From a virus (lineage: Duplodnaviria; Heunggongvirae; Uroviricota; Caudoviricetes): 11,229 nt of DNA. Each line of letters opens with the position of its first letter. Within the stretch, counting starts at the first letter, position 1. The notes under the pieces are model-generated. The model was not told where the DNA came from. It ran no database searches and worked only from the letters and a program-made list of their open reading frames with translations. Of this stretch, positions 277 to 8,499 are shown one piece after another. The translations under genes and the position numbers were made by a program. The DNA lies in the IMG/VR virus record IMGVR_UViG_2778261502_000002, positions 1 through 11,229 of that record; one strand, given 5' to 3'.

Positions 277-933
277 TTATTGCAATTGCACAAGAGTCAG
301 TTCGCCCCCAAAGACAGCACCGGTATCAATATAATGCAGGTTGCCAATATCCACGCGATGTCGCAACGGTGTATGACCAAACCAGAAATGATCAGCACCT
401 GTAATTCCCTGCCCTTTTGGGCGTTCACCTAATCGTGAGCGGCTCCACAAGACCTGATGCAAATCAACGTCCTTTTGCCATTCATAAACATCATCTGGAT
501 AATCGGCATGAGCAATAACATGTTTGCCGGTGCGGCTGTGTACTTCAAGAATAAAGGGCAAATGCTGACATTTTTCCAGCGCCGTTTTCGCTTGTTTCTG
601 TTGATTATCTGCCAGCGCAATAAACCAGTCGCCGCCATTCATCAACCACAAAGACATCTGCTGGGATGCCAGCGCATCCATCGCCATCTGTTCATGATTG
701 CCTCTTACCGCACGAACCCAATGTTGTTCCAGTAACTGCAGACAACGTAAACTTTGCGGCCCACGATCGATAACGTCTCCCACTGAGATAAGTAAATCTC
801 GCCACGGATCAAAACGACAATGCCATAATTTGCGGCGCAACTGCTCAAGACAACCGTGTATATCGCCAGAAAGCCAGATATGTCGCCATTGATGACCCGC
901 AATTCTCTGATAAACGGGCGCAGGCTGTTTCAT
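277..933 (-). CDS. pphA: serine/threonine protein phosphatase 1 (lambda-phosphatase-like metallophosphoesterase)
   Basis: The track ORF 277..936 starts at a TTG; the first ATG is at 933, giving 218 aa MKQPAPVYQRIAGHQWRHIW... Metallophosphatase motifs GDIHG, GDVIDRG and GNHE are present. The adjacent SdsR-like fragment favours pphA over pphB. Confidence 0.8.
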   Translation of the reverse strand: MKQPAPVYQRIAGHQWRHIWLSGDIHGCLEQLRRKLWHCRFDPWRDLLISVGDVIDRGPQSLRCLQLLEQHWVRAVRGNHEQMAMDALASQQMSLWLMNGGDWFIALADNQQKQAKTALEKCQHLPFILEVHSRTGKHVIAHADYPDDVYEWQKDVDLHQVLWSRSRLGERPKGQGITGADHFWFGHTPLRHRVDIGNLHYIDTGAVFGGELTLVQLQ

Positions 934-1067
934 CAATATTTTCCTCCCGCGCTAAAGATCACATAATCTTAACAAGAATGTTAAAAAACGCTGGACTCAG
1001 ACAGTAGAGTGTGTGTTATGGTTGACTATAAAGTCAGCGAAGGAAATGCTTCTGGCTTTTAACAGAT

Positions 1068-1610: not shown

Positions 1611-2156
1611 ATGAACATTAGTGAACTTAAAAACTGTATACACTATGAAGTAATAGGTTATAAACGCCCTTTCTCCTGGCGAAAAGCAATTGTTCGCGCA
1701 ATAAAACACAGAAGATTACGTTATTTATTTTGGTGGCGCATAGCAAAATATCTTTTTGATAAAGGCGGATACCGGCGAAAGGTTGCAGGAAAAATAGAAC
1801 GCTTCATTCTTGATAAATACAATGTAACCGTTCCCTTAACTGTAAATATTGGTAAAGGGTTCGACATATCTTATCTCAATGGCGTTGTTATCGGTCACAA
1901 AGTTACAATAGGTGAAAATTGTTCAATTAAGCCTGGAGTAACTATTGGACTTCGCGGTGAATTTAATGATATGGATATTGTCATAGGAAATAATGTAACC
2001 ATCGGCTGTAACGCCACCATCCTTGGTGGCAAAGTGCATATAGGGAATAATGTAAAAATAGGAGCTCATGCATTGGTACTGCATGACATTCCTGATGACT
2101 CCACATTCATTACTAAATTTCACTCTGAAATTATTTATAACTCATCTCACACATAA
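1611..2156 (+). CDS. hexapeptide-repeat (left-handed beta-helix) O-acetyltransferase, WcaB/CysE-like
   Basis: 181-aa ORF with ATG start and tandem hexapeptide repeats (VIGHKVTIGENCSI, VTIGLRG, IVIGNNVTIGCNATILGG, VHIGNNVKIGAHALV). GC content is visibly lower than the flanking phage genes. The only plus-strand gene inside the tail-fibre locus. Confidence 0.7.
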   Translation: MNISELKNCIHYEVIGYKRPFSWRKAIVRAIKHRRLRYLFWWRIAKYLFDKGGYRRKVAGKIERFILDKYNVTVPLTVNIGKGFDISYLNGVVIGHKVTIGENCSIKPGVTIGLRGEFNDMDIVIGNNVTIGCNATILGGKVHIGNNVKIGAHALVLHDIPDDSTFITKFHSEIIYNSSHT

Positions 2157-2166
2157 TTCCGTTTAA

Positions 2167-2739
2167 TCACAGCTCTGGCCATACGATATCCGGGGCTGTA
2201 TTTATATCAATCCGACTCACTAATACCCGGTATTTTTTCCAGGAAGATAGCATCGAGACTTCTTCATCAGTTGCCATTTCAAAATTAACAGCATCCTGCA
2301 GAATTGTTATGTTATCAGTCGCATCCTGGATTAATCTTGCCTTTTTCTCTTCCGCCTCCCGGATCCGGAACAGTTTTTCTGCTTCTGCATCTTTCACCCA
2401 AGCTGTGCCGTTCCACTTCTGAAACTCCCCATCCGGCGACAACCAGGTGACATTTTCCGGTAATGGGCCAAGTTCAGAAATAAATAACGCGTCGCCGGAA
2501 GCCACGTCATAGACGGTTTTATCCCGATGGTCTTCAACGAGATGCCACGATACCTCATCACTGTTGAAAACAGCCACAAAGCCAGCCGGAATATCTGGCG
2601 GTGCAATATCGGTACTGTTTGCTGGCAGACCTGTATGAGGCGGAATATATGCGTCACCTTCACCAATAAATTCATTAGTTCCGGCCAGCAGATTATAAAT
2701 TTTTATGGTCCGTGCTTGTTCAGTCATTCTGAAATCCAT
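2167..2739 (-). CDS. tail fibre assembly protein (Tfa; lambda Tfa / Mu U family)
   Basis: 190-aa ORF, ATG at 2739 with AGAGGT ribosome-binding site 5 nt upstream. Sequence [41 protein letters not shown]... matches the Tfa family as recalled from K-12 TfaE/TfaR. Confidence 0.85.
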
Positions 2740-2747
2740 GTTTACCT

Positions 2748-3650
2748 CTACTTAATATCAGAGACAGAATATTGTTTATTGAGCGTATGGGTGTGAGCAC
2801 CAATAACGATGCTACTTCCGTGGCTATGTGCGCCAGAGGTGACATTACCTACGGGATTTTCTGGATTAATCCGATGTATATGCGAATCAGGGCGAAACCG
2901 GTTATTAGCCTGATGTTGTATCAGTACATCATCAGCCTGATGTTCAGGATTAATACAGACCTGCCCGGAACGTGAGCAATACGTCCGATAATCGCCGCAT
3001 CCAATATATTTAGTATCCGCATAACGGCAAACAGAATTACCCGGACAGTATGCATATGTGCCAAATACTGCCGACTGGCGAGATTGTGCGTATTCCCAGT
3101 TAATTGATTCTGTTTTTTTATTAAAGTTATCCCAGGCCTGCTTCATCTGGCGGGCAACACTTTCAAACGGCACCTGACCACATCCGGCCCCCATTGCAGG
3201 GAATACCACCGTGGTTATTTTCCTGTCTGTTGTTGCGTTTTTATTGTGCTGAAAGATGGCAAGTAAAGCGGCCCACGTAGCGTTATATACAGCGTCTGTT
3301 CCATCAATTGTCAGCGGAACACGCATTGTTGGCGCATGTACCAGCCAGGGGTGATGATTATGCCCCGTTTCAATCACAAATGCAGAACCTACAGGCTGTT
3401 CGCCTAGATATTCACGAAGAATATGATTCTGAACGCGGGACTGTAACTGAGTACCGAAGAATGCGGTAATGGCGGCATCAACGCCTCCATCCATCAGGCC
3501 GAAACTATTTGCCGCACTTACCATGCAGTCAAATTCTCTGATTGTTTCAAATGGCTTTCCGACAATATTCACATTATCTGCATTTGCGAATACCCGCTTA
3601 AATGCTTCAGCCATTTCTGTTACTGGTGCAGAAAGAATGAGCGTAATCAT
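2748..3650 (-). CDS. macro-domain protein (ADP-ribose-binding/processing fold) with Cys-rich, HxH-containing C-terminal module
   Basis: 300-aa ORF whose ATG (3650-3648) overlaps the fibre gene stop as ATGA, with a GAGG site upstream. The N-terminal ~175 aa carry the macro signature: [18 protein letters not shown] (N-x6-GGVD loop) and [14 protein letters not shown] (second phosphate-binding loop). They align colinearly with YmdB/MacroD as recalled. The C-terminal ~125 aa have 6 Cys and HIH/HSH/HTH motifs. Confidence 0.7.
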
Positions 3651-4762
3651 GCAAGCCTCACAATATAGTTAAATGCGATGTTTTTGACGGTGTTTTCCGC
3701 GTTACCAGCAGCGTTAACGGTGATGGTGTGTCCATGTGAGCCAATTGCAACGGAGTGCGTATGTGCACCAATACCGACAGTATGTGTATGCGCCCCAGCA
3801 CTTGCTGCAGTACCTGATACTGAGTGGGTATGCGCGCCAGCAGAATTCGTTGCACCTAAGTGAGTTTGAGCAGAGTTCGACGAAGCTACTCTACCGGAGC
3901 TAACGTTAGCATTATCCCCCTGAGATATCGGATGCGTATGTGCACCTGCTGAAGCTGCTGTTCCGCTAACGCTATGGGTATGCGCACCAGTGTTATTCGT
4001 AGATTTAGTTCCATAATCAAACGATGATGTGTTTTTTGTCCCTAAATCTGTATTTGAAGCACTGGCGCTGTGGGTGTGCGATTTAATGCCGTCCTGTTCC
4101 AGGCTAAGAACATCACGTCCACTTGCAGGCTTACCTTTGATTGTCCAGCCACGCATATCAGGGATCACGCCTGACGGATAAGCGGCTGCAAGTTTCGGGT
4201 ATGCAGACTTGTCAAAAGTCTGTCCCTGCATCAGAGCATAACCAGATGGAACTGTATCTGATGGCCACGGGATCGGGGCACCTACAGGAAAGGTCGAATT
4301 ATTTTCCAAACCAAGATATTTAAGGACATCAGCAACAGAGCTTTTTGCCAAAATATCTCGCCCAACCTGTGTCAGGTCAGCCAAATTAGCGGTATCTTGA
4401 TTGGTAAAATACGGTAATTTGTTTTCGGATGCTGAAAGATTAGCAAGTGCGGTAAGTATGGCATTAATTCTCTGATAGTTCTTATCTAATGCAGACGACA
4501 TTTTTGCGATAAAGCCGGCCTGATCGCCATCGTCCTGTACATCCAGTCCACTTTCATTTGCTGTATATTGTGCTATTGCAGATGCAATAAAGCTGGCCTG
4601 CCGAATAACCTTATTGACTTGCGCACTGGATGCTTTCCCTGCTGTAAATCCGGATAAAAGCGCAGGCAACGCTTCCCATTCCTCCTGCGACATAACATTG
4701 GCATTTTTACCCGTTGCGAATGCTTTAAAGTCATTTTTTGCCATCAGAGTAATACTCCCCAT
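3647..4762 (-). CDS. side tail fibre protein with HxH-repeat distal domain
   Basis: 371-aa ORF. An alternative ATG at 4744 overlaps the upstream gene stop (TGATG) and may be the true start. The C-terminal third contains seven HxH motifs and a duplicated 19-aa unit [19 protein letters not shown]. Position between baseplate genes and tfa fits a fibre gene. Confidence 0.8.
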
Positions 4763-5424
4763 GCCCCTACATCAAAACCACTGATAAATTCGTTATCCAT
4801 ATCAAAACCAAAAAATTTTGAACCTTCCGATGGGGTTTCCACCGAAGGTGTTTCAATGCCACCCGCCCACACCCCGGCGGCTTTTACTGTGAGATATCCC
4901 TGTTTAATTGCAGCAATTAACTCACGCGATACATCTGAAATATCTGTATCAGGAAAGGCCCAGACCGATATCGTCATGTCCTGGTTATCGACAATCTGCA
5001 TTCGCAGCCCGGATCCTGCTGTCGCCGCGTCAAGAATTGCTGGAAGCGAATCATTCCGTCCGTCCCAGTTATTAATCGCAATCTTCGCTTTAAGGATGAC
5101 ACGATAAGTTTCATCGCTGAGGTACATGTATCCGTAATCAGGATCGTATGGCCCCTGCCATACACCCTGATCATATCCAAGCCCGTCGGTATCCCAGCTG
5201 AAATAGACACCTGAGATAAGCTGGCTGACAACACGACTACGTCCGATCCACAATCCCAGAATGTCAAGTTGCACACCAACCGCGGAGTCAATATCAAATG
5301 CAGTAATCAACCCTCTGGTGGCCGCCGCAACATCAATAAGCGGCCGGGTCATCAGATCAACATGCGCAAGAAATTTAGGTTTGGTGGCGTGGTAGTTCGT
5401 GATTAGTTCGGTGTATTTGCTCAT
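4744..5424 (-). CDS. baseplate protein, Mu gp48 / P2 gpI-like (YmfQ/DUF2313-type)
   Basis: 226-aa ORF whose ATG overlaps the J-like gene stop (ATGA at 5421-5424). Assignment rests on position between the J-like gene and the fibre gene, plus family resemblance. Confidence 0.7.
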
Positions 5425-6620
5425 GACTCCACCGTTATAACGATATTTTCCGGGGTACAGGACGCAGATTCGTTATATCTGATATCAATGTTTGATGACG
5501 ACAAAGCCCCCGGAGATTTACCAATCGTCAGTTCCTGAATATCGTAATAGCGTGCATTCCCGCCACTCACCACGCCAAGATTCGCCGGTGAGTAAATGCG
5601 ACTTAAAAGGACCGAATCACCGATCGTCAGACTATTGATATAGTCGGAAATAGCCTGCTGGATCTGCTGCCCTATCTGTGAGGTATAACCCGTAAAAACT
5701 TTTAATTTAATCCGGGCATAAACAGGCACATCACTGGAACGCGAGAATTTGATTACATGGGGATTGCCGTATTTATCCGGAACCGTAACGGATGTTGTAC
5801 CGTGAGTGGCTGTCCCCTGGCCTTTATTCCCTCTGATAGCCTGAGCAATATCCGTTACATCACCGCCATCCACAATTACAGCAACAGAGTGTGGCGGTAA
5901 CCCGTTACCGTCCTCCGAACCAGTATCGTTTTCATAGAGTTTGTGGCGGGTTACACCGGTAACATTAGAAACAGCACCATCCAGTGCTTCAAATGGGGTT
6001 ATTGATGGCAACGCAACACTTTGCGACTGGCGGATACGTAACTCCGCATCAGTTTCTGCCGGAGTGCCCACAGTAGCCGCAGCAGGATTAGTTACCGAAA
6101 CCCAGCCACGGGTTGGCGTATTAATTTCAGTGATAGTTCCAGCCAGCGCCGCCACTGCACCACTGACGGAACATTTTGCGGTCACCATCACTGTACCATC
6201 CACGCCGACCACCACTGAAGCAGGCAAACGCCATATCACATTATTACTGTCTTTCACGCTGCCATTAATGATGGTTGTTCCGGCAGTTCCTGTAAGAAGC
6301 AAATCAACCGTAGAATTCGTCGCGCCTTTACGTGAAATACCATTTATTTTCACGTTACTGGTCAGTGCAGCCCCATAGCCGGTTGCCGGTGAAAAACAGT
6401 TGTAGACAGTTATCGCCATATTATTGGCATCATGAATCGCCAGCGCCATCAGAGCCACCATCTGGCCGTCTTTGCTGTCCGGTTCGAGGTAGGCATCACT
6501 GCCATAAATCTGCTGAAAATAGCTAATCAGGGTGCTGAGTATCGTCTGATAATCAGGCGCACTGATCCCCTCCGCGGTTACCTTTGCAGATAAACCGAGA
6601 GAATCAAGGTTCAGAGCCAT
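5421..6620 (-). CDS. baseplate J-like protein (Mu gp47 / P2 gpJ / T4 gp6 family)
   Basis: 399-aa ORF, ATG at 6620 overlapping the upstream stop (TAATG). Size and position in the spike / gp25-like / J / I gene order support the call. Confidence 0.75.
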   Translation of the reverse strand: MALNLDSLGLSAKVTAEGISAPDYQTILSTLISYFQQIYGSDAYLEPDSKDGQMVALMALAIHDANNMAITVYNCFSPATGYGAALTSNVKINGISRKGATNSTVDLLLTGTAGTTIINGSVKDSNNVIWRLPASVVVGVDGTVMVTAKCSVSGAVAALAGTITEINTPTRGWVSVTNPAAATVGTPAETDAELRIRQSQSVALPSITPFEALDGAVSNVTGVTRHKLYENDTGSEDGNGLPPHSVAVIVDGGDVTDIAQAIRGNKGQGTATHGTTSVTVPDKYGNPHVIKFSRSSDVPVYARIKLKVFTGYTSQIGQQIQQAISDYINSLTIGDSVLLSRIYSPANLGVVSGGNARYYDIQELTIGKSPGALSSSNIDIRYNESASCTPENIVITVES

Positions 6621-7784: not shown

Positions 7785-8024
7785 TTACTGCTTGTTTGCT
7801 TCTAACGCTTCAGCTATTCGGCGAAGATACTCATTGTTTTTAAATGAAACCATGATGCACTCAAAGAATATTCGGCAAAATACAGCACATAACAAAAGCA
7901 CTAAAGCGCCAGCAGCCTTCCCATTAACAAACGTTATAATGGCGGCAACAACCAGAAGTAACATTGTGATGCCATACAGAACGTTGATGATTTTTGGAGT
8001 TATTAATTTATCAAATCCGAACAT
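7785..8024 (-). CDS. small membrane protein (79 aa, two predicted TM helices), moron
   Basis: ATG at 8024 with AAGGAA site 9 nt upstream. Two hydrophobic stretches: ITMLLLVVAAIITFV and AAGALVLLLCAVFCRIFF. Low GC. Flanked by its own promoter-like sequence and terminator. Confidence 0.55.
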   Translation of the reverse strand: MFGFDKLITPKIINVLYGITMLLLVVAAIITFVNGKAAGALVLLLCAVFCRIFFECIMVSFKNNEYLRRIAEALEANKQ

Positions 8025-8163: not shown

Positions 8164-8499
8164 TCACTTCACCTTCCGGCAATCATACGTCCAGAACTCC
8201 CGAGGCTCGTCCATATTTTTGCGGATAACTTCAACGTTGAGGATCGCTTTTTTGTTTCGTTTGATGTAGTCCATACCTAACCAACGTCCAGTATTAGGAT
8301 CAGGTAACATCCATTGCATCATGACATTATCGAAATCGTCTTTTTGTTTCAAAAAGGTCATTTTTTGTGTTTCTGGCTTTTGACCATTGATGTGCATGAG
8401 GCCATCATTACCAGCATCAAAGCGGAATGGTCCGCACTGCGTTGCCGCCGAAACTGTTAACGGCAGGGCCAAGAATAAACAAAAAAATACTTTTTTCAC
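8164..8499 (-). CDS. secreted/periplasmic small protein (111 aa, signal peptide), moron
   Basis: GTG start at 8499 overlapping the hub gene stop (GTGA), with a GGAG site 7 nt upstream. N-terminus MKKVFFCLFLALPLTVSA|ATQ is a typical Sec signal peptide with a VSA cleavage motif. Two Cys in the mature part. No lipobox. Confidence 0.6.
   Translation of the reverse strand: MKKVFFCLFLALPLTVSAATQCGPFRFDAGNDGLMHINGQKPETQKMTFLKQKDDFDNVMMQWMLPDPNTGRWLGMDYIKRNKKAILNVEVIRKNMDEPREFWTYDCRKVK

Follow-up and report, generated by a model that had tools for sequence, protein, structure and literature searches.

We find that a gene encoding a Poa1p-like macro domain protein is inserted between a tail-fibre gene with a complete gp37-type end and the chaperone gene tfa in an enterobacterial myovirus prophage, and that the encoded protein ends in a variable His-rich tail which, as judged from sequence, is fibre-like at the level of a short motif and shows no homology to the fibre beyond that motif. 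Our preferred reading, to which we give somewhat less than an even chance, is that the tail acts as a metal-dependent tag, for oligomerisation or docking, by which the macro enzyme is coupled to fibre assembly. The main rival to this reading is a cytoplasmic enzyme carried in the locus as cargo.

A macro gene inserted between a tail fibre and its chaperone

The window, by which we mean the whole stretch of 11,229 nucleotides analysed, is the tail module of an enterobacterial myovirus prophage and reads on the minus strand. Its relevant features are:

5421-6620, minus strand: baseplate J gene of the tail module
4744-5424, minus strand: DUF2612 gene of the tail module
3647-4762, minus strand: tail-fibre gene, 371 aa (Pfam Collar and Phage_fiber)
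3650-4318, minus strand: gp37-type receptor-binding tip, fibre residues 149-371 (collar, seven-HxH needle, NYIVRLA terminus)
2748-3650, minus strand: macro ORF, 300 aa plus stop, its ATG overlapping the fibre stop
3063-3650, minus strand: Poa1p-like macro domain, residues 1-196 (Pfam Macro, AF2, Foldseek)
2928-3062, minus strand: Cys-rich core, residues 197-241 (family alignment)
2751-2927, minus strand: variable His-rich tail, residues 242-300 (HIH at 2874-2882, HSH at 2820-2828, HTH at 2787-2795)
2167-2739, minus strand: Tfa, tail-fibre assembly protein, 190 aa (Pfam Caudo_TAP, E 1.1e-37; phrog_105)
1611-2156, plus strand: hexapeptide-repeat acetyltransferase (Pfam Hexapep), convergent with tfa

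The 300-residue reading frame at 2748-3650 on the minus strand, on which the original prediction was built, is real, and its residues 176-300 correspond to positions 2751-3125. The macro ATG overlaps the fibre stop in an ATGA at 3647-3650, and Tfa starts 8 nt past the macro stop. Between fibre, macro gene and tfa we detect no promoter or terminator signal above that of shuffled sequences. We accordingly rejected the idea that the gene is a self-contained moron bringing its own promoter and terminator, as no such signal exceeds shuffles and the GC content equals that of the neighbouring genes.

The neighbouring fibre matches Pfam Collar with E 2.2e-12, and its residues 149-371 match the tip of T4 gp37 (PDB 2XGF) with E 4.4e-88, with seven of seven HxH motifs aligned and an NYIVRLA-type end identical to that of 2XGF. 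The HxH motifs of gp37 are the ligands of seven iron ions (PMC11705849). Tfa-type chaperones contact the distal part of the fibre, and T4 gp37 requires gp38 and gp57A (PMC9608196). By its sequence, the upstream fibre is complete. In the lambdoid phage mEp460, a gp37-type terminus lies directly against tfa, with no macro gene between them. Since the fibre is complete, the Tfa is canonical and the mEp460 terminus abuts tfa, the macro gene is an insertion between fibre and chaperone and part of neither. Salmonella phage SEN34 was also considered as an example of a gp37-type fibre directly before tfa and was discarded, because reading of its junction revealed a fibre that ends in ...ALQAWSELR, which is a different tip type.

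The closest relative of the window is a 97%-identical prophage of E. coli E62, which adjoins yfhH. In this relative (locus L001, 10548-11192) the annotation calls the fibre gene a truncated pseudogene, with macro gene and tfa both intact. The block of fibre, macro gene, tfa and acetyltransferase is found both in E. coli E62 and in a P1-like phage-plasmid. The acetyltransferase gene has a GC content of 0.31-0.37, well under that of its neighbours, and is cargo accompanying the cassette, outside the macro feature proper. Its relatives are annotated as “serine acetyltransferase”, and it may be a lysogenic-conversion gene that alters the receptor.

We note two further observations on the rest of the window. 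At the prophage edge, beyond the acetyltransferase, a 219-aa ORF (277-936, minus strand) contains motifs characteristic of lambda-type Ser/Thr metallophosphatases, namely GDIHG, GDVIDRG and GNHE. Among the baseplate genes lie a small membrane protein, named DUF4282 in the E62 annotation, and a signal-peptide protein (7785-8024 and 8164-8499, both on the minus strand), which may be morons.

A Poa1p-like macro domain

Sequence and predicted fold together identify residues 1-196 as a Poa1p-like macro domain. Pfam Macro matches residues 44-169 with E 2.6e-18, and the match to Macro_2 is weak. The AF2 model computed from a 145-sequence alignment, which took in stand-alone macro homologues, places residues 1-196 at a pLDDT above 90; it replaced an earlier run on a 17-sequence alignment whose mean pLDDT was 53, macro domain included. 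The best PDB fold match in Foldseek is 1NJR, the yeast ADP-ribose-1''-monophosphatase Ymx7/Poa1p (E 1.9e-10 over 198 aligned columns). Across the 145 sequences, N48-x6-G55 G56 V57 D58 and G154-x-G-x-G158 are invariant or nearly so.

A genome scan revealed stand-alone bacterial proteins of about 200 aa that are ~50% identical over residues 1-195 and come from Chloroflexota, Cyanobacteria, Acidobacteriota and other phyla. They stop just past ...IDWQYAQNRQ...GGG, at residue ~197, and among the matches listed none of 120 such relatives carries the Cys/HxH extension. In the one neighbourhood considered, the homologue of a Chloroflexi genome is set among chromosomal genes of an ordinary kind and has no phage tail genes close by, and we saw no functional clues among these neighbours.

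A Poa1p-type enzyme of this kind would bind or hydrolyse ADP-ribose derivatives. Its putative activity as an ADP-ribose-1''-phosphate phosphatase or other ADP-ribose hydrolase is supported by conservation (dN/dS 0.12-0.15 for the macro domain), and its substrate is inferred. When the macro protein was compared with the PADLOC profiles, DarG alone came up, at E 0.007 and 13.8 bits, with no domain passing.

PHROGs assigns the whole protein to phrog_2613, of unknown function. A second PHROGs family, phrog_14717 (“tail protein”), holds fibre HxH repeats (profile positions 2-95) and a macro domain (101-226) in a single profile. Macro proteins of jumbo phages are likewise annotated “tail protein”, as in Klebsiella phage FBKp24 (L007, 2414-3013) and Pseudomonas phage Noxifer (L008, 2483-3130). 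In jumbo phages, however, the macro genes adjoin genes for nucleotide and RNA repair, one of them lying beside an RNA 2'-phosphotransferase, and we therefore do not accept these labels as independent evidence for a role in the tail. The label is probably annotation carry-over, derived from phrog_14717 or from NCBI naming.

A two-part C-terminal add-on with a Cys-rich core

The original prediction placed a C-terminal module at residues 176-300. An add-on is indeed present, but its N-terminal boundary was misplaced: residues 176-196 are the last helix of the macro family (helix 183-196 in the AF2 model and in the stand-alone homologues), and since the stand-alone homologues end there, the true add-on spans approximately residues 197-300. 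In enterobacterial phages, the macro enzyme would thus have gained a C-terminal extension of ~105 residues in two parts, a Cys-rich core and a His-rich tail.

For the first part, the quoted Cys-containing string is found in the protein, but it contains five Cys residues (C202, C208, C218, C225, C232) rather than the six that had been counted. In the 17-member family alignment, C202, C208, C225, C232 and H237 are invariant, while position 218 varies between C, L, F and S; the core follows the pattern YCPx4C...YIGxGDYRTYCxxSGxxCIxxxHQxDD. Its dN/dS is 0.20-0.34. AF2 predicts a beta-hairpin at residues 211-225 with low to moderate confidence, the core as a whole having a pLDDT of 58-71. The spacings within the pairs C202/C208 and C225/C232 (5 and 6 residues) are atypical for a Cys4 zinc module, and no Pfam match was found. 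The 45-residue segment with its four invariant Cys residues is probably a small Zn-bound or disulfide-bonded knot. Since the family is narrow, the co-variation signal over the add-on is scant.

Searches with the add-on lead back to the macro family. A word-index search with the C-terminal 125 aa alone gave 4 matches and was replaced by exhaustive phmmer and full-length searches; with residues 176-300 against 1.84 billion representatives, phmmer returned macro-family members and fragments together with spurious repeat proteins only. No profile of Pfam, NCBIfam or PADLOC matches the add-on.

The homologues of Izhakiella australiensis, also 300 aa long (L013, 2068-2970; L014 and L015, 120-1022), keep the position between fibre and tfa. 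Their middle segment is unrelated to the Cys core and contains 7-8 Cys residues in CGC, CDCGC and CRC patterns, and they still end in GxHxH units (GAHTHS, GCHDH, GRHNHYIYTGAHTHS...GAHHHGVKK).

The His-rich tail resembles the gp37 needle at the level of the motif

The second part of the add-on appears to be a fast-evolving tail of ~60 residues with 1-4 G-x-H-x-H units of the kind that builds the T4 gp37 needle. The three motifs named in the original prediction are all present (HIH at residues 257-259, HSH at 275-277 and HTH at 286-288), and GAHSH and GAHTH of the macro tail match the GAHTH unit that is found five times in the neighbouring fibre. Across 59 family members, of which 55 have at least one GxHxH, the motif occurs 5.98 times per 1000 aa, compared with 8.1 in gp37-type fibres and a background of 0.15 in the whole of the remaining six-frame ORFs from these loci, which amounts to a ~40-fold enrichment in the family.

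Whatever the clade, the tails align at one place, the three HxH units that close the needle (residues ~322-350 of the window's fibre). Against composition-preserving shuffles, the alignment of tail to fibre reaches z 4-8, or z 5-7 for each tail with its own cognate fibre; in local alignment with fibre residues 306-350, the window scores z 4.2 and its relatives as much as 7.8. BLASTP matches ~20 residues of the tail to the fibre with E 0.002. Several Salmonella alleles retain the full 9-residue unit, one example being GAHTHTIDIGAHNHAIHTG opposite a fibre counterpart of 19 residues. Tails score higher with their own fibre than with other fibres (56.0 vs 50.4; 0/5000 permutations), a difference that is confounded by clade structure.

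The tail is also the most variable part of the protein. It differs in length and sequence through indels of whole units, with 0-4 HxH per protein, and its dN/dS of 0.45-0.48 exceeds the value for the macro domain three- to fourfold. P0005, the most abundant allele of E. coli (a cluster of 579 sequences, 97% identical to the window), carries GTPIH where the last GAHTH would stand. GAYNH or NSHGKH is seen in other alleles, and a few family members are without any HxH. P0005 and its relatives (loci L100-L107) read VIGTPIHT or VIGTPTHT for VIGAHTHT, and the P0005 allele has gained an extra Cys, with RTCC for RTYC. With an AF2 monomer pLDDT of 31-39, the tail is predicted to be disordered as a monomer.

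At identical residues of tail and cognate fibre, the codons agree in 294 of 741 cases, and 297 would be expected from codon usage; the sole DNA repeat shared by tail and fibre is a 22-nt match of 82% identity. Codon identity being at chance, the likeness of tail to fibre is not the product of a fresh duplication or gene conversion, and recent copying from the adjacent fibre repeats was excluded on this ground together with that of the single short repeat. Combined with a dN/dS below 1, the chance-level codon identity points to maintenance of the tail at the protein level. The tail may still go back to an ancient duplication.

Of the two parts of the module, it is the tail (residues ~242-300) alone that resembles a fibre; the Cys segment has no relative among fibres. 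Pairwise and database comparisons do not show the module in its entirety to be homologous to the distal domains of fibres, as the Cys core scores z = -0.6 against shuffles when aligned with the fibre and phmmer finds the macro family only. The further elements of a gp37-type tip, that is collar, head domain and NYIVRLA terminus, are all absent from the macro ORF: Pfam Collar (PF07484) gives no match in it even at E <= 10, and no segment of any family member matches an NYIVRLA-type C-terminal strand. Pfam Phage_fiber stays under the cut-off on the tail, with E 1.7 for the window's protein and a best value of 0.76 among family members. By sequence, then, the module is a short needle-like repeat at most, and not a fibre tip.

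Linkage and distribution of the cassette

We collected 91 loci from phage records, IMG/VR and GTDB genomes, covering E. coli, Salmonella, Erwinia and Izhakiella. In all 91, the start codon of the macro gene and the stop codon of a gp37-type fibre overlap in the same ATGA junction, and in nearly all of them tfa comes next, at a distance of -10 to +31 nt. The cassette is carried on lambdoid (Gifsy-1), P2-like (SEN4/5, Chuche), P1-like phage-plasmid and SEN34-like backbones. The macro ORF is open, with a dN/dS below 1, in essentially all complete copies examined.

The gene is nonetheless rare. It is found in 128 of 5426 complete E. coli genomes and in ~6 of 291 phage records with a gp37-type terminus, and since only ~2% of gp37-type fibre loci carry it, fibre assembly does not require the macro gene. 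The macro gene is optional in the cassette and, over the 91 loci, never misplaced.

Two records deserve a comment of their own. Salmonella phage SEN34 (L005, 3983-4200) contains, downstream of an O-acetyltransferase, a stop-interrupted relic of the 3' part of the macro gene (...YASARQNAVFSTTAYCPSKALCPNARTEYIGFGDYRTYCKKSGNTCISPRHQVDDIYIGAHSHA...); with no macro domain and far from the fibre, it resembles the remnant of a cassette that was lost or rearranged. A contig of a “Bacillota bacterium” MAG (JAEWTL010000041.1, locus L009) has an enterobacterial fibre-macro-tfa cassette that is 91-96% identical; the contig is almost certainly a mis-binned one from an E. coli phage.

A proposed docking or oligomerisation tag and its alternatives

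How the tail might serve as a tag is suggested by analogy with gp37. The macro enzyme would be made together with the fibre, through translational coupling in a late operon. Its tail could then act in one of two ways: (I) three tails may share metal ions through HxH pairs, as three gp37 chains do, or (II) the tail may dock on the nascent gp37-type needle or on the Tfa chaperone. Either way, the enzyme would be held near the site where the fibre is assembled, and it may even be carried on the virion; that the tail binds metal, that it trimerises or docks, and that the macro protein associates with the virion at all are steps that we infer. The gp37 needle consists of six strands, two per chain, and the single-pass tail would consequently be no exact copy of it.

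This reading is supported by the strict linkage, the needle-like tail, the signs of selection at the protein level, and the GxHxH units kept in Izhakiella despite a replaced Cys core. The low monomer pLDDT of the tail would likewise fit a segment whose folding awaits assembly. The strand count of the gp37 needle speaks against this reading, and so do other observations. The HxH units are individually poorly conserved, and the tail evolves at the raised dN/dS given above. The nearest macro relatives are cytoplasmic, stand-alone proteins in an ordinary chromosomal context, which does not suggest a virion role. Moreover, the Phage_fiber match on the tail is not significant, and the fibre has no need of the macro gene for its assembly.

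The strongest alternative, though in our view an unlikely one, is that the protein is a soluble cytoplasmic ADP-ribose enzyme, serving counter-defence or housekeeping in NAD, ADPR or RNA repair, which rides in the slot between fibre and tfa, and whose Cys/His appendix is a generic metal-binding or stabilising element that makes no contact with the fibre. The half-identical stand-alone cytoplasmic proteins of many phyla, the fold match to Poa1p (1NJR) and the jumbo-phage homologues among nucleotide and RNA-repair genes are all in keeping with such an enzyme, as are the relaxed constraint, frequent motif decay and predicted monomer disorder of the tail and the fact that fibre assembly proceeds without the macro gene. 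There is also a phage precedent, since the T4 macrodomain AdfM has been reported as an anti-DarTG2 factor (bioRxiv 10.1101/2025.11.20.689424). However, a cytoplasmic cargo leaves unexplained why the same ATGA junction recurs in 91/91 loci, why a structural repeat of the neighbouring protein is kept at the protein level without DNA exchange, and why GxHxH was regained or retained in Izhakiella despite the replaced middle segment. The DarG match in PADLOC is, moreover, marginal.

It is improbable that the tail is a relic of a fibre 3' end, left when a macro gene landed in or beside a duplicated fibre 3' segment, so that the HxH tail would be a decaying read-through remnant up to the old stop before tfa. 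Such an origin would fit the alignment of the tails with the very last HxH run of gp37-type fibres, the rapid evolution and often decayed motifs of the tail, and the union of fibre repeats and macro domain in PHROG 14717. It is difficult to reconcile with a Cys core that lies between macro domain and tail and has no fibre counterpart, with tail residues past the last HxH that are unlike the C-terminal sequence of the fibre, and with reading frames that have stayed open under a dN/dS below 1. The original prediction put this as a macro domain inserted into a former fibre C-terminus, an idea that is unsupported for the reason that the upstream fibre is complete and matches the 2XGF tip; codon identity with the cognate fibre at chance level also tells against it. 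An invertible segment of the Mu G or P1 C type, with the tail as an alternative Sv' exon, was rejected as a source of the tail because neither an inverted partner nor an invertase flanks the gene in the window; the unchanged linear order of fibre, macro gene and tfa in the P1-like plasmid also counts against it.

A metallochaperone, whose Cys/His-rich extension would hold Fe2+ or Zn2+ in a gp37-like HxH geometry and pass it to the nascent needle, appears very improbable: the extension does stand beside, and is coupled in expression to, a fibre whose trimer needs seven metal ions (PMC11705849), but most gp37-type fibres assemble without a macro gene, and the strongly conserved macro domain would be left without a role.

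Returning to the tag, we also considered a bolder form of it, which we regard as a long shot. Here the HxH tail would recruit the Poa1p-type enzyme to the gp37-type fibre or to Tfa, and the protein would found a new class of enzymes tethered to fibres, whether anti-defence or accessory in role, whose spread follows that of host-range cassettes. Two versions are proposed, namely that the enzyme is present on the virion, or that it is a counter-measure placed at a complex sensed by ADPR-signalling immunity. The latter was prompted by a report that the side tail fibre and its chaperone set the sensitivity of Pseudomonas N4-like phages to type II Thoeris, which signals through His-ADPR (bioRxiv 10.64898/2026.06.04.730250).

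Comparison with known systems

In the literature searched, we found no publication on the fibre-linked macro protein and no report of its function. The closest structural comparison for the tail is the T4 gp37 tip (2XGF; PF03335, PF07484). Both share G-x-H-x-H, in several macro alleles with the 9-residue spacing of the needle, and the macro tail is encoded right after a genuine gp37-type tip and before Tfa. In contrast to gp37, the macro tail has 1-4 units, makes a single pass, is without collar, head or NYIVRLA, and sits on an enzyme rather than on a fibre shaft.

For the enzyme part, Poa1p/Ymx7 (1NJR) and the bacterial stand-alone proteins (PF01661, PF14519) share the fold, the N-x6-GGVD motif and conserved His, Asp and Gly residues with the macro protein, whereas they end at residue ~197-210, and none of the 120 listed has its extension. 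Similarly to T4 AdfM/Tk.4, which acts against DarTG2, and to the macro domain of the DarG antitoxin, the macro protein is a macro domain encoded by a phage, and ADP-ribosyl-hydrolase chemistry is plausible for it; unlike them, it is Poa1p-like and not DarG-like, lies in a late structural operon and bears a fibre-like tail.

With respect to gene order, the macro gene recalls the T2/S16 gp38 adhesins and the Tfa proteins of Mu and Ur-lambda, in that it lies immediately downstream of the distal fibre gene and moves with the host-range cassette. The Tfa proteins of Mu and Ur-lambda remain on the fibre. Unlike these adhesins and chaperones, the macro protein contains an enzyme domain, shows no relation to them in sequence or predicted fold, and is optional, being present in ~2% of gp37-type loci.

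Implications for the host-range cassette

The distal fibre and tfa form the main host-range module exchanged by enterobacterial phages and are much used in phage engineering. Inside this cassette, an optional and strongly conserved macro enzyme is found, including in Gifsy-1 of Salmonella LT2 and in prophages of E. coli ST131 and O157. Whichever reading holds, annotation is affected, as many family members and unrelated jumbo-phage macro proteins are labelled “phage tail protein”. If the tail is functionless, the locus is a well-defined cargo slot. If instead the tail tethers the enzyme to the fibre or its chaperone, ADP-ribose chemistry would be linked to tail-fibre assembly or to immune evasion, and the HxH repeat would be a portable oligomerisation or docking tag.
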